Notes: a model not told the origin generated them from the sequence alone. 64,000 nt of DNA from a virus (IMGVR_UViG_3300046799_000011:1-64000), one strand, 5' to 3'; numbered from the stretch's first letter, positions 4,606 to 50,859 are shown. A program made the numbers and translations.

Positions 4606-4711
4606 AATGCACAGAATGGCCCCTAGGACGCTCTAACAGGTTCTAGGGGCCCCGTTGGTCCAACCATCCGAAACGATCTTTCTACAGAGCAACTGAGAGG
4701 TTTTGATCATC

Positions 4712-8052: not shown

Positions 8053-8061
8053 TGATCATGA

Positions 8062-8099
8062 GAAAACCCCTGGTCAGAGATGATTCAGGGGTTTTCTTG
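8062..8099 (+). terminator. intrinsic terminator
   Basis: gaaaacccctg...caggggttttctt. Confidence 0.65.
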
Positions 8100-8108
8100 T
8101 GTCTGGGC

Positions 8109-8137
8109 TTGACCTCACTGCGGACGGCATGTAGTGT
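8109..8137 (+). promoter_or_regulatory. early HrdB-type promoter
   Basis: TTGACC-N17-TAGTGT. Confidence 0.7.
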
Positions 8138-8164
8138 TCCTCTTGTCGCCACAACGGGGCACAA

Positions 8165-8307
8165 ACTCAGGTAGTCCACTGGGAAGACAGGTAGAGCCTA
8201 GACAGTCCGAGTCTTACTCGTGCAAGCGAGAAAAGAGGGACCACGGTCGTTAGACTAGTCAAGGCTTGAATCCTAGGTATCCTGTCTACCCTGTAGATTA
8301 CCTGAGT
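8165..8307 (+). ncRNA. structured leader RNA: long closing helix enclosing a multi-way junction
   Basis: 8165-8176 pairs with 8296-8307; AGACAGG/CCTGTCT; inner hairpins including a GCAA tetraloop. Confidence 0.6.
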
Positions 8308-8346
8308 AGGATTTACTATAAAACTCAATAGTGGAAAGGAAATCCA

Positions 8347-11300
8347 ATGAGTATATTTCTCGGAATTGCTATTCCCATAGTCCTTGCGGTAATCACTGTG
8401 GTTATCGTTTGGCTTGTGGATGTCAGCAAGAGAGGTTTGTTCTAATGATGACTGCCCCGCATTTCGCTGCAATGGCGGAGATCTTCAATGCGATGTACCG
8501 TGACAGTTATGCGGTAACTGTGGGTGACGTTGCGATTCCTGGTCTGTGTAAGGCTGGGAAAGAGGCGGATTTCGTTAACTTCCGACTTATGGTGAGTGCT
8601 TCGGCAACTTACTTTGAGGAAGATAATCCCAGATTCAATCGGGATAGGTTTATCCGCGCGGTTTATCGTTAATTGTTTGAGCTTTCTACTCGGAATAACG
8701 TAGAGATTGTGTCTTTATAGTCCGAGTGGATTACTCCATCAATTAAGGAGTATAACCATGGCTGTTAAGCTCAACGAGCGTACCGGTTTCACATGTGGCA
8801 AGCGCTCGAACGGTGAACGCTGTGTTCTGTGGTCTGATGACACGTTCGAGTGGTTCGATGAGGGACAGTTCGCATATCTGTTCACTGTCTGATTGACTGA
8901 GCTTTCCGCACAGAATAACGTAAGGGTTGTGCCTTTATAGTCTGTGCGGATTACTCGATCAATGAGGGAGTAGCAAAGTGACTGTGGAAGAGCTTATTAA
9001 ACTTCTCCAGGCAGTTCCTGAATTCATGCAGAAAACGGAAATAGCTGTATTCACCGATAAAGGTGAGCGCAGCGAATTCGCCAGTAGGCAGCTTTACATA
9101 GAGAATGGCAAGTTGACCATTCCAGTACGTAGAGTCAATTAGCGCTAGGTGTCTTGCATCCTGCATACGCTGTGTGTAGGGTGTTGCTCATCTAGAGCAC
9201 TCGAAACTAGGAGTTACTGTGTTCCTTAGTGCCTTTATCGCCGATGAGAAGCTTACTGTTCACAAGAGCGGCTGCTCTCACGTTGTGCGTAACTGGCGTG
9301 AGTTTGGAGCGCCCATTGTCACCAACGCCCAGTCTCAGATGGGTCTCATGCGTCAGGTCAAGAACCTTGGTATCAGGGTTCAGAGTGTCCGTGTGATGCC
9401 GTGTGCTGGTCTTCCTGAGGGTTTCTGGAGTCACACTCCCTCGGGTCAGCCGTTGCGTCTCCTGGACACCGTTGAGGGCGCTCACAGGGCCACTAAGAGG
9501 GTTGAGCGCATAGCGCGTGCTGAGATGACTCACATCATTGACAACATGTCCCCCATGCTGCGAGAGATGTTCGGTCTGTCACGTCAGAGCTAGGTGTCTT
9601 GCATCATTCAAGACTATGTGCTTGAGTGGTGTTGTTCATCTAGAACAGACAGCAACCACTAGGAGAAAAAGTGTCTACTCCGATTGTCCTTACCGTTGAG
9701 AACGTGACTGCTGCACTGCGAGCGGCCGTTGAGGAAAAGGGTGAGGACTACGTTTACATCAATGCGAACGGGGAAATTGCCGGACAGAGTGACAACACTT
9801 TCGGCACAATGTGCAATTACGTGCACAACTTGGGTGAACCTGCCGAATGCCCTGGCTGCATTGTGGGTAATACCCTGAATCGTCTCGGCGTTTCTCTGAT
9901 TACCCTTTCTGGGTATGAGCGGCGCGGGGCACTATCTCTACTGGAAAGTCTGGCGCGTGCAGAGCTTGTCACCTATGAGGATGACTCGCTGGTGTATATC
10001 CTTGCGCGGGCACAGACCAAGCAGGATAACGGTGGTACTTGGGGTGCGGCTCTTGAGTTTGCCCTGTCTTGGGAATAGCCAAGAGATTAAACTTGGCTAT
10101 TCCTTGTTCGCCTAGAGAGGTAATAGTAATGGCACTGGAAAACTACGGCACCATTTGGGTATGTATTAACTGCCTCCATCATCATGCAAATGGTGAATGC
10201 GGAGACTGCCATTCGGACCACGGTCATGATGAAGAGCCGCTAAACGCAATTGAGTGGCCTTTCAGTGTGGCAATGGGGGGTGGTTGGGAAGAGCACAACG
10301 ACGCATGTATAGTATTCGTCATCAATGATCTTAAGCGCCGTTTTCCTGACAGGAATTGGCCGGAAGTTCCGGGCGATTATGAATGCGACTGTGAGTTTGA
10401 TTCTTTCAGCCGTTCTCCATGTGATGGCTGTAATTCCTGGCTTCATGGTGAACGGCACGCTATGACACTGTTCAAGAACAGCGAGGTATGAAATGCTGTA
10501 TTGTCCCAAAAACTGTAAGTGCTCTCATGACATTGATTGCCCTGAGCACACCGAGGCAGAGCAGCACCATGACGCATCCGACCACGTAGAAGAGCGCTAG
10601 ACAGTTTTACTCATTCATTACCTACTGAGCTTGCGGGTAGTGAGTGGGTATGACAGGCTAGAGCCAGTCAACCAGAACAAGAGGGAGTCACAAGATGCGT
10701 AAGCGTACTGAGCTTGAGATCATGGTCGCGGTTGCCAACCACCCCAAGGTGCAGGCGTACCGTAAGGCAGTCCAGATCATGCATTCCCGTATGACTGCCC
10801 TGTACGGCCCTGACTATGCTGTCGTGCAGGCTCCCAAGGACAATTATGACTACGTGGAGGGTCTGTACATGACTCCCCAGCACCAGAACCTCTTTGCCTC
10901 GCTCATGCGTGGTGCTGCTAAGGTTCGGCGTGACGTTCGTAACTCCCTTCTCGCACACTAAGAGGAATCGCAAAATGAAAATCGTAGTGGAAGATCTGGA
11001 TAAGATCATTCGACTTACGGGCACCGAGGATTCATCCGGTTTGCGTGAGGCTCTTGCTTACGTACTGGTAAGGGTATGGGATAGGGGATATAACGACGGT
11101 TGGACTGACGCAAAAGATGACGTAGAGTCTGTATCCGTCAAATGCCCTTACACACAAAGCCACACACGCGACTGGTGCGGTTATTCGGAATGCAGGGAGT
11201 CGTAGTAATGGATAAATTCCACGTTAAGTGTCATTTCGAGAATTCCGATAAGACTGTGGAGTTCTTCGGATTCAGTTTTGAAGAGCTGCAAAAAGTACTT

Positions 11301-11408
11301 CAGGCCAAGACAAAGCAGACACGCTTTGTCAATAAAGACTCTCGCGGAACATTCGTGATTGTCGATATGGCTAAGGTTACCCACATCGAAGCCGTTCCCT
11401 CATACTAA
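8347..11408 (+). CDS. early operon of small hypothetical genes: 8347-8445, 8445-8672, 8758-8892, 8978-9142, 9219-9593, 9671-10078, 10129-10491, 10695-10961, 10975-11205, 11208-11408
   Basis: Tiled co-oriented ORFs, mostly with GGAG/GAGG RBS. Confidence 0.7.
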
Positions 11409-11422
11409 GGAGAAATAGCATA

Positions 11423-12007
11423 ATGATTACTCTCGCCAAGGAAGATGGACCTGCCGATCTTACCGGGGTTACTCACCTCAGTATCGGTGTCTCATGGGAT
11501 CCTACTTCGGGATCTTCTGGTGGTCTTGCGGGTGTTCTTAAGCGTAAGCTCGGAACTGACCTGGACCTGATCGCCATTCTTTGCCAGGGTGGGGAGCCTG
11601 TGAGGCTTGCTGGGCTGGATTCCCTGGATCCTGTTGGCAACGGCGCTATCGTCCACAGTGGGGACAATCAGACCGGTAACGGTGTTGGTGATGACGAGAC
11701 TGTGACTGTTGACTTCTCTCGTGTTCCGCGCAATATCACGAGCGTTGTCTTTGTTGCTGCTGCCCACAAGAAGGGTAGCGCATTCTCTAAGGCACGAAAC
11801 GTCAGTTTCAAGGTCTATGACGCTACGGGAGGTTCTAGTCAGCAGGTGGCCGATATCTGGCCTTCTCTGATGGCTACAGGCAATGCGAATGGCGTTGCTA
11901 AGGCTGTCCGCAACGGTGATTCCTGGTCCCTTGAGGTTATCAACCACATGGGCAAGACCAAGCAGGGTGACGAAATTTCCCTCTTGCGCTTTGCCAAGGG
12001 TCTGTAG
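11423..12007 (+). CDS. terD: TerD/TerZ-family stress protein
   Basis: GVSWD...DLDL...HSGDNQTGNGVGDDETVTVDF. Confidence 0.85.
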   Translation: MITLAKEDGPADLTGVTHLSIGVSWDPTSGSSGGLAGVLKRKLGTDLDLIAILCQGGEPVRLAGLDSLDPVGNGAIVHSGDNQTGNGVGDDETVTVDFSRVPRNITSVVFVAAAHKKGSAFSKARNVSFKVYDATGGSSQQVADIWPSLMATGNANGVAKAVRNGDSWSLEVINHMGKTKQGDEISLLRFAKGL

Positions 12008-12048
12008 TACCTTCTAGACAACGCAGTACACACAGAAAAGAGCTAGAC

Positions 12049-12506
12049 ATGTTCAAGGTCACTGACTCGCACTACGTCGCCACTGTGGGCGTTCTCAAGG
12101 GCAAGGAGAAGGTAGCGTTTGGTCTTACCATTCCGCTAACTAAGCCTGCTGCTGTGGGATATATCAAGGGTCTTCCTGGTGGGCGTATAAACGGGAACTA
12201 CCGAGTCATCAAGCGTACTACTGCCCGTAAGCTCGGTCTGATCTAAGGTTCTTTACTCATCACTATCCATTTCCATTCCATGGATAGCGGTGGGTATGGA
12301 ATCCTAGAAAGGGATCCGTAATGAAATTGCCACGACTTGAAACAACAAGTAATGCCGCTCTTTCTGATCGTATGAGTTCTGTATTCGAGAATGGGTATGG
12401 AAATGAAGGGCCAGTAGCTAAAGGGTGTTGTCTGCTCCTGGCTATTGCTGTAATCCTCGTAATCCTCAGTCCTGTAATAGCAATTGGTATATGGATTGCG
12501 CTCTAG
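12049..12506 (+). CDS. two small ORFs (12049-12246 basic; 12321-12506 membrane)
   Basis: ORF track; C-terminal hydrophobic helix in the second. Confidence 0.6.
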
Positions 12507-12586
12507 TGAGTTTTAATCATTACTCAGAAATGGGTAGTGGTTATGATTTCCTAGAATGGGAGTCACCATTACAAAGGGAGAAAAAA

Positions 12587-12931
12587 GTGAACGGTAAGAC
12601 TGTTGTTGCAAGTCTTCTCGCAATTGTCCTTACCTATGGAGCTGTAGAGGGTGGTATTGCGGCATTCGACGCTACGCATCCTGAGCGCGATGTCACTGTT
12701 ACCGTTACCGATAAGGTCCGTACTGGGGGTGACAATTCAAAGTACCTGATCTTTACGGATCGCGGTACGTTTGAGAATATTGACAGCATGGTCAAGGGTA
12801 AGTACAACTCTTCCGACCTTTACGGTCAGATCAAGGTCAAGCACACCTATACGTTTCATGTCCGGGGTGTTCGCAGTGAGTTCTGGTCTATGTACCCGAA
12901 CGTTATCACTGCCAAGGAGCTTGACAAGTAA
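12587..12931 (+). CDS. membrane-anchored/secreted phage protein (DUF1523-like)
   Basis: N-terminal TM; VTVTDK...KYLIFTD.GTFENIDS...NSSDLYGQI. Confidence 0.65.
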   Translation: MNGKTVVASLLAIVLTYGAVEGGIAAFDATHPERDVTVTVTDKVRTGGDNSKYLIFTDRGTFENIDSMVKGKYNSSDLYGQIKVKHTYTFHVRGVRSEFWSMYPNVITAKELDK

Positions 12932-13002
12932 TATCTAGTGCGCTTATATCATTCTCATCTATTGGTGAGGGTGGTATTGGAATACTAGCGAAGGGCTCAG
13001 TA

Positions 13003-14242
13003 ATGAAATTCCTTGATGATGTTCCGCGAGAAGAGCGCTGTTATGTGGTATTCCGGGGAACGCCCAGTGTTTATTACATAACTGCGGATAACGGAATTGA
13101 CGCGCTTGATGCGGCCCAAGATTTGGCACGTACAAAGACTGAGAATACGGGAGAGAAGTACACAGTAATGTGTATTCCGCAAGACTGTTTGCAATTCTCT
13201 CTTACTGCCGTAAATCACGGTGTTGTATTCCACGCGACAAACAAGCTGGAAGAGGATAGCGAGTAATGTTCGAAAACTGGTATCTGTGCGTGCTGTGCAA
13301 TGACGTTATCGAAAAGCGTCAAGGTATTTGGTGGGATGAATCAAACAATGCGGTTGGATTTGGATTCCATAAGCATATTCCCACTGATCCCGAGCAGTAT
13401 TACTCCCATAAGTATGGTGGTGATATCCGCACCGAGATTCTTTATACCTGGAATCTCACCAGTAATTATGATGACTCTGTAGGCGAGACAGACACATTCG
13501 GGTATTACTCGGTGCTCTATGATTTCCATGCAATTCTGGAAGTCGATTCCGAGGGATTCGTATTCTCTTACCATTATGATTCCCGCGAGGCTACCATTAA
13601 CGCGTGGAATAACAAGGTAGACGATTACTGGGAATGGTCAAAGGAAAACGGGGAATGCCAGTGCGGTTCTGTTTCCTGTGATTACTATGAGGACAATCAA
13701 GACAGGCTCGATAAGGAGCTGGAATACGAACGTAGGGACCTAGACAGCTAGTCCGTTCTCTCGCGTCAAGCCGCTTGACTTGGCTCGGGAGTGTGCACTA
13801 GAGTCGTACCAACAGCACAACAGAGGGAGCGCGCAACATGATGGAGCGTCCTACCGGCTCATTCCTGGAGAATCGAGAGGCTTATTACGCATGGTGGGCT
13901 GAACTGGCCCGTATCGCTAAGAAGCGTTATCACGCTCTGCCTGAGGACAAGGGTATTCCCGTTCCGTATACGGCTTGCCGTACGCGTTACAAATATGTGA
14001 ACGGCGCTGGTGTCTCCGCTAGCTCACGTGTGGTGTCTCACCGCTACGCGGATGAGGGAGACAAGGGCAAGAGCCTGCGACGCGAGATCAAGCGCGTAGA
14101 ACGTGCTCAGTGGCTCTCTGAGTGGCAGGAAGAGCAAGAGAGTCAGGAAGTGTACGACACTGCCGAATGGTTCGCAGCATGGGCGTTTTGGTGGGAGGAT
14201 GACGCAACGTGCGGTAACCCGTACTGTGAAGTGTGCGAGTAA
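13003..14242 (+). CDS. hypothetical genes 13003-13266, 13266-13751 (acidic), 13838-14242
   Basis: Tiled ORFs. Confidence 0.7.
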
Positions 14243-14261
14243 AAGATCTTGAGCTAGTGGC

Positions 14262-14291
14262 TTGACAGGGTAGATGTTGGTTCGCTAACGT
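14262..14291 (+). promoter_or_regulatory. early HrdB-type promoter
   Basis: TTGACA-N18-TAACGT. Confidence 0.6.
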
Positions 14292-14339
14292 CTTCCTTGT
14301 GAGGTTCCTAACCGAGGGACTGAGGGAAAGAGGGCAGTA

Positions 14340-16364
14340 ATGGAACCGAGTGTAGTGGTTAACACAACGACGTATGACACGTTCACTGTTTCCACCATCG
14401 TTACCCGCTCGCATTTCGAGACTCGCATTTTCAGTGAGGATGGCGAGGCTATTCCTGAGGGCATAAAGACTGCTATCAAGGGTCGCCTTACGTGGACAAG
14501 CCAGGACTATGACAACGTCATAGTTGGCCAGGACCGAGAGTCTGTGGAGTCTTACTCCCACTCTGACGCCGAAGATGTGCATACGGGTATGAGTGTCCTG
14601 GTGACCCACTTCCTCAACACGCACACCCGCACAATCACTTACGTTCCGAACAAGTAGTGAGCTTGCATCGTCTGAGACTCTGTGCTTAGATGGTGCTAGC
14701 TTCCTAACAACGGGAAGCATGTACAGGAGGTAAGCAGAATGGCTGCTCGTAAGAAGACTCAGGTTCCGCCGCTGGACATTGCCAAGCTCGGTGAGATTTT
14801 CGCCAAGCTTGTTGAGTTCGGCGCGACTGAGGATTCCCCTGTCACTGTCGGTGAGATGAACGACGAAATGGCGGAAAACACTTTCGACAACCTGAATATC
14901 CTTGCCGACGCTGAGCTTATCGGTATGGGTGAGGGAACGAACGCGGGTAAGCTCTGGGTTGCCATCCCGGATGTCAGTTCCGAGAATGCTGGGGAATTCT
15001 TCAATGAGGCTTTCGCCAACATGTCGGCTGATGTTCTGATGGCACTTGGTAAGCCTGCGGAGGCACCCAAGAAGCTGACTGCCAAGGAACTGGAGTACAA
15101 GGAGCGTACGGAGTACAACGCGCGGGTTGCTGAGTCGCAGGAAGATGGAGCCCAGCACAGGCACCCCATGCCGGACGCTGTGAAGCCTGCTGAGACTCCC
15201 GTAATTGCTGCGGACGGTACGGCCGTTACGGTTCCCGTTGACCCTGAGAACGACCCTAAGGGACCGCGTAGGGAGCTTGACGCAAGCAAGGGTGAGAAGC
15301 TGATCGGTGAGGACGTGATCAAGGTCAAGGCTACGGCCAAGCCTGAGCGACTTCCTGAGATTGATGGTCTCGATCAGTTCCTTGATGACGAGACTGGTGC
15401 AATGGTCTATGAGTCTCGGATTGAGAAGGTTGGTCTCTGGCTTGATGAGCCCGAGAGTGTTCCTGCCCTTCCCGAGGGAGTCAACCCCAACACGTGGAAT
15501 GCCGCTCACACGGCCGCTACTCAGACCGCGCGGGATTGGTACCTCGCACGTGTGAAGACCCAGCAGGAAGAGCACAAGATCAACGAGGGTGCCCCCGCTC
15601 CGTTCTAGTCGAGTGAGTTAGACTCCGGTAGAAATATCGGAGTCTTTCTCTCCCAACTAGAAAGGCTATGAAAATGGCTAAGGTTATTGCTGGTGTAGTC
15701 GCTACGCTGATTCTCTGCATTCTTGTGGGAATCGTGCTGGTTGCATTCGGTAAGTTCCTGCTAGGTCTGGCATTCGTAGTCGGAATGCTGCTTATCACTG
15801 GTCTGGTAATTGCCGGTATCTTCGGTAAGAAGTTTGCGGAATTCTGGAAGTCGTTCTAATAAGTTAGTGCGCTTTAATCAGACTCCCCTTAATTGGGGAG
15901 TTTGGTTATGGTCTACTAAACAGAAAGAGACACAAATGAACGGTGTTCCTGGTCCAATAGTTGTTCTGTTCATCCTCATATTCTGCGGTTTCGGTATGTG
16001 CATGGGTTTGCTTTTTGGGGGTCAGCTAGGAAAGACAGATCAGTTCTCCAAGGACTGTAAGGCTATGGCGCATGGTGCAGTGGACAAGAGCGCTGATAGT
16101 ATCTGTGTCAAGAATGGCAAGATTCTCTTTCACCAGTAAGGTAGAGAAATGCGTGCAGTTGTCATTACCTATATGTGGTGGGGAATGCCGCGAGTAAAGG
16201 TGTTCTCTCACGAATACAAGAGGTTGACTGATGAAAGACTAGTCAAAAAGGTAAAGGGTTGGGCGCGCTGCAATATCTCTAAGCTTTATACCCCGGAGAA
16301 TTGCTCCATTACGTTTTACAGTGACATTCTCGATGTAACTACAGCGGTAAATATTCCGCTGTAA
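14340..16364 (+). CDS. hypothetical genes 14340-14657, 14739-15608 (acidic, 289 aa), 15668-15859 (membrane), 15936-16139 (membrane), 16149-16364
   Basis: Tiled ORFs with RBS. Confidence 0.7.
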
Positions 16365-16365
16365 A

Positions 16366-16407
16366 TAAGAAAGCCTCCATACCAATTAAGGTATGGAGGC
16401 TTTCTTA
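16366..16407. terminator. bidirectional terminator between the convergent early operons
   Basis: taagaaagcctccatacc-aattaa-ggtatggaggctttctta. Confidence 0.8.
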
Positions 16408-16537
16408 TTATGTACTGACTTGACAGGGACACGTCTAGAAGCTCTGTAAGCCTCTCTAACAAGATCCTTTATCGTCTTGACCTCCTAGGTCACCTTGAGG
16501 CTGTGAGGCTCTTAGAACGTCGTTCTGTACGTTCTAG

Positions 16538-17766
16538 CTACCCTCCTGCCCCCCGGTTGAACTCATGGGTATGGATGGCTATCGCTTGAATCTGCTTGCG
16601 CGCGGTTGCCTTGCTCTGTGGATGCTTGCTAAAGGTCTTGTCAGTCCCTTTATGAGCTGCCTTGTATCCTCCGCGTACTTTACGAATTTCGTAGGGCACC
16701 CTAGACTCCCTCTGTATGAGCCTGTAAGAGGCTGGCAGGAGTAGACTGGTCACTTGCTACCGTCTCACCCTTGAAGGCGCACACACCGAGCGCTAGGACC
16801 GTTGTCAACAGGGTAGTAACAGCCATACTGAGATATGTCTTTCTGTCCCATAAACCTTTTGGTTGTGGGGGGATTTGATTTGTCATTTAATTCTCCTGAA
16901 AATGAAAACAAAAAAGCCAATACCCTTAGTATATTGCTACTAAGGGTATTGGCAGTAATACTATGAAGTTCTAGAAAGAGTCAGGGGAATTGAAAGCCTC
17001 CACAGGCTCATCGTAGGTGATGGTAACGAGAGAATCCTTGTCCAGGATGAGACCCTTCTTCTCTCCACCCATCAGTTCAGCAGTAACAACGTAGTCGCCA
17101 TGGTCTTCCGCAGCATCGCTCAGCGCCCAGAAGGTGCGTCCGAGTGAATCCGTGACCAGGTCACCGGTACGGATGTTCGCGGGAGACTGGTTGTTGTACG
17201 TAGTCATTTTGTGCCTTTCTTATATTACTCACTGACTAATTGCCAGCTTTAGCCACACCCGATATTTCTATCGGATATGACTAGAACTGTCAATTCTTGA
17301 TATCGTCCTTGGCAGTGAAACCCACCGCAACAAGACTCCGAAGATCCCAAGACAGGTACACAACAGCCAGAACTGCCAGTAGCCACCAGTGAAATGGGAT
17401 GGCTACTATCAGTAGAGCCACGTCAATTGCAATTTCCGCGTAAAGAGCCTCACGCGAAGCAACCTTAGACACTTTATAGCCTTTCGTTAGTTATGTGTAC
17501 TGCATGTCATAGCGCAGATTATTAAAGTACGCTTGTCCTGTATTTACCGCAATTCGTAGACTGCTCTCATCCAAAAACATGGAGTAGTCACGTTTATTAG
17601 TAGTACTGGCTTGATGGCTTTGTAGGAACCTCAACCGAAACATTTGGTAAAGCTCGTTGGTTGAATTTATACTGCGCTTAGACTTCATCCTATTCTCTAG
17701 CGCTCTTTGTGAAATTCGCCAGTGAGCAACTAGACTACCCTCGGAGTATATCCATAGAGTATACAT
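16538..17766 (-). CDS. small hypothetical genes 16538-16699, 16701-16886, 16971-17207, 17290-17472, 17491-17766
   Basis: Tiled ORFs with RBS; terminator hairpin at 16910-16953. Confidence 0.6.
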
Positions 17767-17829
17767 GCTAGCCCTTTCCGCTAACCATAGCCACCCCCAC
17801 ATTTCTATGGGAATGACTAAAGCTATCGG

Positions 17830-18363
17830 CTAAGCCGTTGCAGTGAAGACATACATTTCATCTGCATAGTTATTCGTAGCGAAATCCCCTCGGATTTCAT
17901 CGTACGACTCTTCCCAGTCGATGCAAATCCAGGAAGGGACGTTAGCCATTTCCTCTGTACCTTCCGCGTGATCCTTGGCGAATTCCGCACCATCACGGTA
18001 TACGCCGTAATACCCTTCCTTGTAGCCATACCCATTGCGAGTACGGGTAAAGGGGGCAGAAGTCCAGCCGAAAAGCTCACCATAAGAGATGACAGCGCCC
18101 GCATTCTCGGGCTCACTCACAAGAGCCTCAAAGACAGCGGAAAACGTCTCAGCGTCTTTGATCTCAGCAAATACACTGTCCCACTTGGTAAAGATGCGCA
18201 CACCGCTGATAGTCCATCCCGCATTCTCCATACGAGTTACCAGCGACTCAACGATAGCGGAATCGTGCGACTCGTCAAGGTCAAAGGAACGCTTACGGAT
18301 ATTCGCGCCCGTTCCTTCCTGCATAGAGAAAGAAAGAAACTTGAATTCAGCACCGTAACCCAT
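17830..18363 (-). CDS. ardA: ArdA-like antirestriction protein
   Basis: Acidic; C-terminal YYGVY.D..EFA...VPSW..IDWE.....I..DF resembles ArdA domain. Confidence 0.6.
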   Translation of the reverse strand: MGYGAEFKFLSFSMQEGTGANIRKRSFDLDESHDSAIVESLVTRMENAGWTISGVRIFTKWDSVFAEIKDAETFSAVFEALVSEPENAGAVISYGELFGWTSAPFTRTRNGYGYKEGYYGVYRDGAEFAKDHAEGTEEMANVPSWICIDWEESYDEIRGDFATNNYADEMYVFTATA

Positions 18364-18443
18364 AGGATTACCCTTCTATTGCTCCCGAACGGTTTAGGGA
18401 GACATAGAAACTCTCTGATTGCCCAGAGAATCCCTAAATCGCA

Positions 18444-19030
18444 CTAATCCCGGTAAGTCAGATCAAACCATGAGCCTATGGGCCCATCATAGTGCCGGAC
18501 ATTGAATGCCCCCACCTTATCGGCGTAAGGCTTTCCGCCAAACCACTTGATCATAACCTTTGCGCCAAACAGCGCAGAGTAGTTATAGATCAAGTCGAGA
18601 AAGAGTTCTTCAGTAACAGCCTCAAAGCTATCACCCTGGAATATCTCAGGAAAGCCTACAGGCTTACCATTTTCGAATTCCTGCATTACCGCAGTAGGCA
18701 CGATTTCCCCTAGAACTTAGAGAGCGTGTACAGGAGCTGCATCAGCCAGCGGTAAACCACCTTAAGGGCTGTTGCGTCAAACAGCCAATCGGGTTCCCCT
18801 CCGCACAAGTTGATGCCCTCGCCAGTCTGGCCACGACTTATGATCGTGTCAACCAGGTTGTCAGTAACGAACTGACCGTGTGCAGTGAAATCGTAGCGCC
18901 GATCGTAGAACGACACAACATGTGTGTGATGGATGGAGTTACCGTTGTCGTCCTTCCGGTCACTGTACACTACGCGGAACGGGATTCCCTGTGATGTGAT
19001 GACATCCACCACAAACTCTACGTGAGGCAC
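18444..19030 (-). CDS. hypothetical genes 18444-18701 and 18710-19030
   Basis: ORF track; GGGAG RBS before 19030. Confidence 0.65.
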
Positions 19031-19102: not shown

Positions 19103-19359
19103 CTCCGCAGCTCAGAGCGCATCTAAGAGCCTCACAGACTGCCCTAGGTCCCCACGTGCTAGAGTCACCTCTCAAGCGCTCAGACAGGCGCACAGAGCTT
19201 AGGAGGGTCAGTGTTGCCAAGGTGCCCGCACTGCGGTTCAGTGAGGCTAGTCCCAAGTGAGACCAAGCCACCTAAGAAGCACAACGGCTCATGTACTGCG
19301 GAATGCCTAGTCAAGGGGAAGCTTTGCCTTAACTGTCGGATGTTCCGGGCGAACTAGTG

Positions 19360-19388
19360 TTGACAGTCTCCGATTGCTAGGATAGAGT
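19360..19388 (+). promoter_or_regulatory. HrdB-type promoter
   Basis: TTGACA-N17-TAGAGT. Confidence 0.7.
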
Positions 19389-19530
19389 CGGAGACAACAC
19401 ACGGAGCGCTTGCGCTCTAAGGGTCACGTGTCAGACCAGTTGACACCCTACGGATTCAAACCGAACCTGCCATAAAATAATTGTCCTGGAATGTCGGATT
19501 TATACCTTATATTGGGAAATAGAGGAATAA

Positions 19531-49556: not shown

Positions 49557-50511
49557 TTAACTGAACTCCTTTACCTCTGCCTTATAGTGCTTGTGCTCCT
49601 GCTTGAAGAACTTATAAAGTTCCTCAGTGAAACTCCAGTCAGCCACATAAAGATCAAGAGTCGTAATAAACTCAATAAGTTCTTCGTGGGTGAGCTGACC
49701 GGACAGTTCCTGAGCGATATCATCTGTATCAAGATTAATAAAAGCACCGAATTCCATTAGACTCCCTTAAGTTCCATGTAGTACTTATCCAAATGGGCTT
49801 CACATACTAGGTCTACTTCATCCTCGTAATACCAAGCGCCGGATAGCATCTTCTCACCGTCGCGGGCTACGTCAATACACTTGACGATATAGTAGACTAC
49901 TGAGTCATCAGGATCAATCCATGTGGACATGATCTTGATAGTTACAGCATTACGACTGACTTCAAATTCGTTTGTCAGCAACTGATTGATCTGAAACAAC
50001 AACGGGCACCCACTTAATAGTAGTAACTTCCTTAGGCTCTACCTGAACAGCCTCTACATAGCCACGGGTATCTTCCCAACAGTCCTGACCCTCTTGATTC
50101 TCTGTGGCAGGATCCATGTAGTCAACCGCGTAATGCTTACCATCATCCGCTAGGAATATAAGCTCACGCCAGGTATACCAGCGATGCTTATCCAGTTCCC
50201 GATTGGCGATGGCTTCCCAGGGAAGTTCATACTCCTCTTCCAGCTCTTCAACAGAGAACTTACGAATTACCTTAGCCAAAATTCTCTACCTCTTCCAATA
50301 CTTGGTCAACAATCCTGAATAACTTTACAATATCTCCGCAATAAGGACTGCTAGCAGTTGCGGTAACACTTCGTCTAGTCTTATGAAATCTCCAGACACC
50401 AGCGCTATCAACGCTAGCGAATTCTGGGAAAGCAATACCATGTGCGACCATCTGTTCTCCTCTAATAATCCATAGCCACTCTCCTCGTTAAAGGAGAATG
50501 ACTAAAGACAA

Positions 50512-50859
50512 TTAGCGACGCTTACGAGTAGTAGACTTCCAACCCGGAACCGGCACAGCCTTGCGCGGAGTAGTGGTTGTGGGCTTGTACGTCTTGGGCT
50601 TAACCATAGGCTTCGGGGTGGCAACCTTGATGGTGTGCTGAGTGCCGTGAGGCTTGTACTGGTAGGTATGAGTAACGTAGTACTTGTGGGTAACACGAAC
50701 CGTCTTGGGGTGCGTGTAGTAGTGATAGTGGTGCGCGGTGTCATAGTAACCATACTGAACCACGTAGTCATACTGCGGAGTAGCGGGACTAGACCCACAT
50801 GCAACAGCACCAGCAATAATTGCCGTGGCAATACCCGCAGCAGCAAAAACCTTACGCAA
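50512..50859 (-). CDS. lipoprotein with Tyr/His/Lys/Thr-rich tail
   Basis: Lipobox AVAC; GGAG RBS. Confidence 0.6.
   Translation of the reverse strand: MRKVFAAAGIATAIIAGAVACGSSPATPQYDYVVQYGYYDTAHHYHYYTHPKTVRVTHKYYVTHTYQYKPHGTQHTIKVATPKPMVKPKTYKPTTTTPRKAVPVPGWKSTTRKRR

Follow-up and report, generated by a model that had tools for sequence, protein, structure and literature searches.

The 64,000-nucleotide stretch IMGVR_UViG_3300046799_000011:1-64000 (hereafter the window) covers the left 64 kb of a phage genome in IMG/VR that is 111,669 bp long and has a 127-bp terminal repeat. Analysis of its early region revealed a family of conserved RNA hairpins lying between small genes, each with a lower stem of fixed length, a nearly invariant UxU mismatch and a longer, freely covarying upper stem. 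With moderate confidence, we consider these hairpins to be endonuclease processing sites, probably for host ribonuclease III (RNase III), whose cutting would leave hairpin-capped messages. The family is a new one for phages of actinobacteria (actinophages), of a kind, phage intercistronic processing hairpins, that is already known.

Structure of the hairpins and selection on RNA

Every gene gap longer than 25 nt was folded, revealing a strong coding-strand hairpin in nearly all, often far more stable than the fold of the opposite strand. A covariance model (R1) was built from 7 copies and rebuilt as R2 from 33 matches, and R2 was run on the whole window with filters off and a cut-off of E < 1e-4. 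The search returned 13 copies, of which 12 fall within 9145-18447 and the other lies at 50462-50515. Each is oriented like the genes that flank it, and G+C content is 0.35-0.59 (Table 1). A preliminary description had listed sixteen such elements in the early operons. Folds and R2 confirm hairpins at those places, and the number is roughly right, but the set is mixed, comprising 12 canonical copies, 2 variants of the same geometry with a poor R2 score (15605-15660) or none (14254-14311), 2 members of a separate class (class II) and 1 leader hairpin.

For comparison of copies, base pairs were counted outward and inward from the mismatch, as MAFFT had misaligned the inner stems. Pair statistics refer to 55 copies from 7 genomes, the UxU count to the first 33 copies, and energies and the second fold described below to 76 copies. 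The lower stem has a fixed 10 pairs and ends in CUAG...CUAG or CUAA, with position 5 usually unpaired. Lower pairs 2-4 are U-A, A-U and G-C in 51, 47 and 49 copies, respectively, while pair 10 is U.G in 47 copies and U-A in the other 8. Immediately above lies the UxU mismatch, a single non-pair present in 32 of the 33 copies, followed by three variable pairs and then by U.G (53/55) and C-G (49/55) as upper pairs 4 and 5. Past the C-G pair the upper stem covaries freely and reaches pair 13-16 before a small loop. The variable pairs define two subtypes, UAGUC/GGCUA and GCAUC/GGUGY, which differ in sequence and keep their pairing. These counts bear out the layout proposed in the preliminary description.

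Pairing was kept in 88% of cells, compared with 61% in shuffles of the same copies. Change on both sides was observed for 21 of the 22 pairs, a level approached by 0 of 500 shuffles and by no slid register. The sense strand folded more stably than the antisense strand in all 76 copies (means of -29.6 and -18.7 kcal/mol), with a mean of 22.3 pairs per copy, 19% of them G.U. Within the window, hairpin stability ranged from -21 to -31 kcal/mol. This covariation and strand preference show that selection acts on the coding-strand RNA. The earlier proposal of selection on RNA and not on duplex DNA, for which a covariance-model test had been suggested, is thus upheld.

Position relative to genes and transcription stops

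Small genes in the hairpin region form two operons that converge on each other. The rightward one begins with a promoter-like site at ~8110 and ends at the two-way U-tract terminator of 16366-16408, and the leftward one extends from ~19100 to a terminator at 16916-16953. Positions relative to genes were counted for 43 elements in 5 genomes. In 24 elements the 5' CTAG supplies the stop codon (TAG) of the upstream gene; in the others that codon lies at most 14 nt from the 5' end of the hairpin. For 42 of the 43, the next start codon, preceded by a purine-rich ribosome site, comes 7-48 nt past the 3' end of the hairpin.

No copy is followed by a T run, and a terminator scan flagged none of them; the G+C-rich hairpin with an immediate U tract that marks an intrinsic terminator is not the form of this family. 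Ordinary U-tract terminators mark the operon ends, so the hairpins are not needed for stopping transcription. Together with the strands of the R2 matches, these positions agree with the earlier reading of the elements as intercistronic, flipping strand with the genes and distinct from U-tract terminators.

A second fold of the 3' arm and a proposed model of processing

The 3' arm of the lower stem has an alternative partner in 59 of the 76 copies: it can pair with the 16 nt immediately downstream, giving a small hairpin whose loop contains CUAG or CUAA. This second fold was more stable than 95% of those made with shuffled flanks in 39 copies, where ~4 would be expected. With the cognate flank its energy was -5.9 kcal/mol, versus -2.85 kcal/mol with foreign flanks, and 34 of the 76 copies ranked within the best 5%. 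The long hairpin (~-30 kcal/mol) outcompetes the second fold whenever the 5' arm is present. A selected second fold thus implies an RNA that begins inside the element, with the 5' arm removed.

An RNA of this kind would be produced by the following pathway. Host polymerase would transcribe early polycistronic messages carrying the hairpins, each a 10-pair lower stem closed by CUAG/CUAG, the UxU mismatch and a 13-16-pair upper stem, about two helical turns in all. The helix would be bound by an endonuclease specific for double strands, most likely host RNase III (Rnc/AbsB), and cut at the mismatch or immediately beneath it; by analogy with phage T7, probably only the 3' side would be cut. The upstream message would then end in the stable upper stem-loop, blocking 3' exonucleases. 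The downstream message would start with the freed 3' arm, which could refold with the ~16 bases that follow and slow 5'-end-dependent decay. The register of the T7 site R1.1 predicts a cut 1-3 bases below UxU, and not above it as the preliminary description had guessed. We infer the cut, its position and its enzyme here, for hairpins whose structure, strand, position, conservation, second fold and involvement in one gene swap are observed directly.

Promoter-like motifs offer a second possible origin for RNAs that begin within an element. Among 20 copies of the GCAUC subtype, whose junction has the sequence TTGCAT, a TANNNT motif (mostly TAGGGT) lies exactly 17 nt farther on, in the 3' arm, in 6 and TTAGAT does so in 7; a spacing of 18 nt was seen in 1 of 20 only. 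Combined, TAGGGT, TAGGTT, TAGAGT or TTAGAT follows after 17 nt in at most 13 of 20, the -35 element being weak. Examples include 9145-9195, 9590-9643, 14654-14707 and their relatives, and the copy at 4699 in Streptomyces phage pSt2308 reads TTGACA-17-TAGGTT. Promoter-like sites elsewhere in the genome have the form TTGAC(N)-16 or 17-TAG(N)GT. The UAGUC/UAAUC subtype, which accounts for most copies, shows no promoter-like motif. From these motifs, some copies may in addition give rise to transcripts whose 5' ends lie in the 3' arm and fold into the same small hairpin.

Comparison with known RNase III sites

The five early RNase III sites of T7 were folded from the T7 record for comparison. In R0.5, R1, R1.1 and R1.3, a U.G/C-G step lies four pairs above the internal loop, and in R0.3 it is slightly shifted; in the family, the step follows three pairs above the UxU mismatch. 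The U.G/C-G pairs of R1.1 constitute the 'middle box', which is contacted by the enzyme (PMC1540722). The commonest six-pair upper block of the family, UCAUUC/GAGUGG, recurs unchanged in the upper stem of R1.1, where it includes the U-A/U.G distal box. Full contact by RNase III extends over ~22 bp, with 11 bp per half-site (PMC1540722), and the helix length of the family (~22 pairs) with its central mismatch fits such a substrate, as had been supposed. Since the lower stem is fixed at 10 pairs, the mismatch is nearly invariant, the apex is variable and the length is two turns, the pattern indicates recognition of the helix centre and not mere stability.

At the scissile region of T7-type signals, an internal loop or mismatch restricts cutting to one strand, a part that the single UxU non-pair might play here. 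The family and the T7 early sites are both sets of intercistronic hairpins of about two turns in an early operon read by host polymerase, with upper and lower stems split by an unpaired centre and the U.G/C-G step 4-5 pairs above it. Copies within a genome resemble one another, and no U tract follows. They differ in that the centre is a single UxU in the family and an asymmetric loop of several bases in T7, and in that the family has a longer upper stem (13-16 pairs) and CUAG clamps that often hold the upstream stop codon. T7 has five sites, whereas 12-16 occur per 10 kb here, in a phage whose host is an actinobacterium, and the proximal-box preferences of the Escherichia coli enzyme are not followed. 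The T7 likeness proposed in the preliminary description is supported by the U.G/C-G step and the R1.1 block, but the consensus quoted there is matched poorly: AGWGNNCWU fits 3 of 13 5' arms, its partner fits none of the 3' arms, and the consensus is not enriched in the window (38 matches versus 41 expected).

In a Gram-positive host of another phylum, Bacillus subtilis, the RNase III sites of early mRNA from phage SP82/SPO1 (Panganiban and Whiteley 1983, cited in PMC4838370) are likewise repeated, conserved hairpins between early genes.

Several observations weigh against processing by RNase III. The proximal box 2 position is G.U, G-C or C-G in 26 of the 55 copies, a pattern that does not obey the rules for E. 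coli, where a purine 2-amino group at this position inhibits the enzyme (PMC1540722). The middle-box U.G is dispensable for E. coli RNase III, its substitution even slightly raising reactivity (PMC1540722), and the invariance of U.G in the family may reflect another factor. Distal-box-like pairs occur in just 17-20 of the 55 copies, and a known Streptomyces RNase III target region, rpsO-pnp, folded from one genome, has no motif in common with the family. Transcripts from an internal promoter in the GCAUC subtype would be served equally well by the second fold.

Distribution across phages

The family was found in 14 phage records. With R2, phage BRock and two IMG/VR relatives of 111-112 kb each gave 9-11 copies, and GiJojo and pSt2308 gave 5-8. 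The remaining records with copies are two more of 111 kb, three phages that are complete or nearly so (53.6, 59 and 62 kb) and three shorter contigs; for the 59-kb contig, which holds three copies, no cultured relative was found. Chance matches of a loose UAGUC-subtype DNA pattern served as a negative control for R2, and ~1 Mb of unrelated viral contigs picked by such loose patterns gave no other R2 matches. R2 found none in 3 whole Streptomyces genomes, nor among the top candidates scored from 101 genomes of the genus. Rfam gave no match at gathering score within the window. Our literature search found no paper describing these elements, nor any on how messages are processed in phages that infect Streptomyces and other actinobacteria.

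Six early intergenic hairpins sharing the family core are present in the Gordonia phage Bantam (KX557272, 84507-90512, minus strand). Like the family, they lie between a stop codon and a ribosome site on one strand and have the core U.G, UxU, G.U, C-G, A-U. They differ in a shorter lower stem without CUAG ends and in a fourth pair that is UxU in half of the copies. R2 does not score the Bantam hairpins, the likeness being confined to the core. Because this core is shared with an unrelated phage, and because the present phage has no RNase III gene (PF14622 was absent), we favour a factor common to actinobacterial hosts.

A wider formulation, in which the hairpins of Streptomyces and Gordonia phages are one shared punctuation module of actinophages, would have the same 5' hairpin arise either by a cut at UxU or from an embedded promoter, with the cores doubling as exchange joints. 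We regard this as tentative and doubtful. Titration of AbsB by the sites is pure speculation.

The second fold, the promoter-like motifs, the copy at 50462 and the spread across actinophages are new beyond the preliminary description. The presence of the family in the cultured phages BRock, GiJojo and pSt2308 comes with a well-defined motif and a predicted cut site. If processing by RNase III is correct, the family would provide rules of sequence and structure, the first for any actinobacterial RNase III substrate, as well as compact insulator parts for Streptomyces operon design.

Other explanations for the hairpins

The hairpins might act uncut, as stabilisers or insulators that block exonucleases or the spread of decay, giving the message of each small gene its own lifetime. 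Their high stability and presence in almost every gene gap suit such a role. A roadblock, however, needs no fixed 10-pair lower stem, invariant UxU or fixed U.G/C-G step; it leaves the covariation of the downstream flank with the 3' arm unexplained, and the second fold is impossible while the long hairpin is intact. We consider uncut stabilisers unlikely.

Composite terminator-promoter cassettes are a further candidate, in which a U-less hairpin would stop or attenuate transcription and an embedded promoter would restart it. Such cassettes resemble the promoter-stem-loop cassettes (PeSLs) of T4-type phages, for which gene swaps at the elements have likewise been described (PMC2839356, PMC4122927). 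PeSLs too are small repeated elements between orphan genes in a plastic early region, and a subset of the present hairpins carries promoter-like motifs: the GCAUC pair at fixed 17-nt spacing, and TTGAC-type sites at pSt2308 4699, 13748 and 14254. U-less terminators in the early region of actinophage phiC31 are also on record, as cited in PMC3993855. PeSLs, however, place a U-tract terminator beside a strong promoter, whereas the present hairpins have no U tract, most of them (UAGUC/UAAUC) have no promoter motif, and their helix contains conserved wobbles and a mismatch. Gene-swap break points at the elements are common to both, but a strong sigma-70-type promoter joined to a terminator stem-loop was not found here. 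A dozen serial terminators without restart would moreover silence the distal genes, conserved mismatches and wobbles would weaken a terminator hairpin, true U-tract terminators stand at the operon ends, and the title of PMC3993855 states that mycobacterial polymerase requires a U tract. Terminator-promoter cassettes are accordingly rather unlikely in our judgement.

A phage-encoded RNA-binding protein or nuclease, Cas6-like or a translational regulator, could also recognise the hairpins. The UxU mismatch, two fixed U.G pairs and CUAG ends exceed the known needs of RNase III, and a Pfam scan left 29 of 30 early-region proteins without a family, providing room for a novel factor. The scan of these 30 proteins, together with the PF14622 search, detected no nuclease or double-stranded-RNA-binding family, and a shared host enzyme explains more simply why the same core occurs in the unrelated Bantam and in the 53-62 kb phages. 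This makes a phage factor quite unlikely.

Gene exchange at the hairpins

The preliminary description had suggested that the elements serve as recombination joints bounding gene gain and loss. Contigs of four metagenome runs were aligned to the early region, revealing natural break points at three hairpins. In the X6 strain, represented by a single 5.5-kb contig, two genes (17257-17775) are replaced by 346 other bases, one joint lying inside the hairpin at 17239-17294 and the other 1 nt from the hairpin at 17777-17830. An X10 contig diverges at 12980, inside the hairpin at 12935-12988, into a different ribosome site and gene. The early region is mosaic in its gene order, mixing shared with unique small genes and with hairpins between them, and identical lower-stem sequences adjoin different genes in different phages; that of 14654-14707, for example, reappears at different gene positions in BRock, pSt2308 and the relative G001. 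The suggestion of joints is thereby substantiated.

The simplest explanation is that the repeated cores act passively as short homologies for accessory-gene exchange by ordinary recombination, since the genome contains no integrase or tyrosine recombinase (PF00589, no match). If so, this would be a concrete case of repeated regulatory hairpins driving cassette exchange in a phage accessory region. A primary role at the DNA level, with folded single strands acting as cassette recombination sites like integron attC, is highly improbable: the gene-hairpin-gene-hairpin array, the conservation of structure over sequence and the swap break points recall attC, but there is no tyrosine recombinase, the ends are CUAG without attC-type core sites, the elements flip with transcription direction and occupy precisely the space between a stop codon and a ribosome site, each helix has ~4 G.U pairs, which cost little in RNA and much in DNA, and homologous recombination at repeated cores accounts for the swap.

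Separately, in runs X3, X6 and X9, 33 bases at 15142-15176, within a gene for a 289-aa protein, are replaced by 102 others, giving a protein segment of variable length. A metagenome scan with this 289-aa neighbour protein yielded no further contig.

Hairpins and associated features in the window

The features of the window are collected in Table 1, where class I denotes the R2 family. The two class II hairpins in the window, compared with one copy each in the relatives G001 and G002, share 25 pairs, 7 of which show compensatory change. In the variant at 15605-15660, an A>G change at 15622 in other strains preserves the pair as G.U. BRock and G002 also have copies in the arm matching the location of the 50462-50515 hairpin.

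Table 1 Hairpins, promoter-like sites and terminators located in the window
Position	Strand	Feature	Evidence
~8056-8098		U-tract terminator just before the rightward-operon promoter	Fold shows terminator hairpin
8109..8140	+	Promoter-like site TTGACC, 17 nt, TAGTGT; head of rightward early operon	Sequence reading
8165..8307	+	Branched long leader hairpin, outside the family	Fold; no R2 match
8673..8757	+	Class II, 85-nt two-tier hairpin with 3/3 internal loop	Fold, covariation
8893..8977	+	Class II, second copy	Fold, covariation
9145..9195	+	Class I, GCAUC subtype; TTGCAT, 17 nt, TAGGGT	R2 38.8 bits; sense -26.4 vs antisense -6.0 kcal/mol
9590..9643	+	Class I, GCAUC subtype; upper block as in T7 R1.1; stop codon is the 5' TAG	R2 49 bits
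10597..10661	+	Class I, longer upper stem	R2 35.6 bits; second fold p = 0.0
12243..12307	+	Class I, divergent lower stem	R2 28.2 bits
12503..12554	+	Class I, GAAA loop; stop codon is the 5' TAG	R2 53.5 bits; sense -21.3 vs antisense -5.5 kcal/mol
12935..12988	+	Class I; X10 contig departs at 12980, in the 3' arm	R2 52.8 bits
13748..13801	+	Class I variant; apex TTGACT, 18 nt, TAGAGT overlapping the 3' CTAG	R2 28.7 bits; promoter scan
14254..14311	+	CTAG/CTAA ends, GxG mismatch; TTGACA, 18 nt, TAACGT; conserved in G001	Fold; no R2 match
14654..14707	+	Class I	R2 46.1 bits
14698..14718	+	Example of second fold: 3' arm with downstream bases, CUAA in loop	-10.6 kcal/mol, 7 cross pairs, p = 0.0
15605..15660	+	Variant with longer spacers; UxU and GAAA loop kept, without U.G/C-G step	Fold; R2 10.1 bits
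15864..15919	+	Class I, top-scoring copy	R2 60.5 bits; sense -30.6 vs antisense -15.9 kcal/mol
16366..16408	.	Two-way U-tract terminator where the early operons meet	Sequence; weak R2 noise only
16916..16953	-	Canonical intrinsic terminator, 16-pair stem then T run	Terminator scan
17239..17294	-	Class I, CxA replacing UxU; X6 break point inside	R2 32.8 bits; joint at 17256
17777..17830	-	Class I, GAAA loop; X6 break point 1 nt from 3' end	R2 44.2 bits; joint at 17776
18394..18447	-	Class I, GCAA loop	R2 48 bits
50462..50515	-	Class I, between two replication-arm genes, far from the early region	R2 46.8 bits

Source phage, host and early genes

The phage is uncultured and present in soil and root metagenomes; none of the public runs listed as containing it is an RNA run, and no near-identical phage records were found. 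Its DNA polymerase is 55-56% identical to those of the Streptomyces phages GiJojo, pSt2308, LuckySocke, Alone3 and BRock, with no close polymerase kinship seen outside the BRock group. A TerD-domain gene at 11423-12007 encodes a protein 74-80% identical to chromosomal Streptomyces TerD, which points to a recent capture from the host. Given this polymerase kinship and the TerD identity, the host is almost certainly Streptomyces.

In the Pfam scan of the 30 early-region proteins, one match was confident and one fell below threshold; TerD, scanned separately from those 30, does match Pfam. The confident match is the product of gene 642-1283, with an Rv2179c-like 3'-5' exoribonuclease domain (E = 5.6e-11). 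This gene is found in the genomes G000, G001 and G002 and not in BRock or Bantam, and its occurrence does not follow that of the hairpin family. A phage 3' exonuclease alongside phage messages that would be hairpin-capped is an interesting pairing, though the two distributions differ.

The tetranucleotide CTAG is not over-represented genome-wide. The gap at 12005-12048 has no hairpin and contains CTAGAC twice in direct orientation, 30 nt apart; the second of these adjoins the start codon. At 19354-19420 on the plus strand, a strong promoter-like sequence (TTGACA, 17 nt, TAGAGT) lies inside a hairpin that starts with CTAG, an arrangement like that at 14254.

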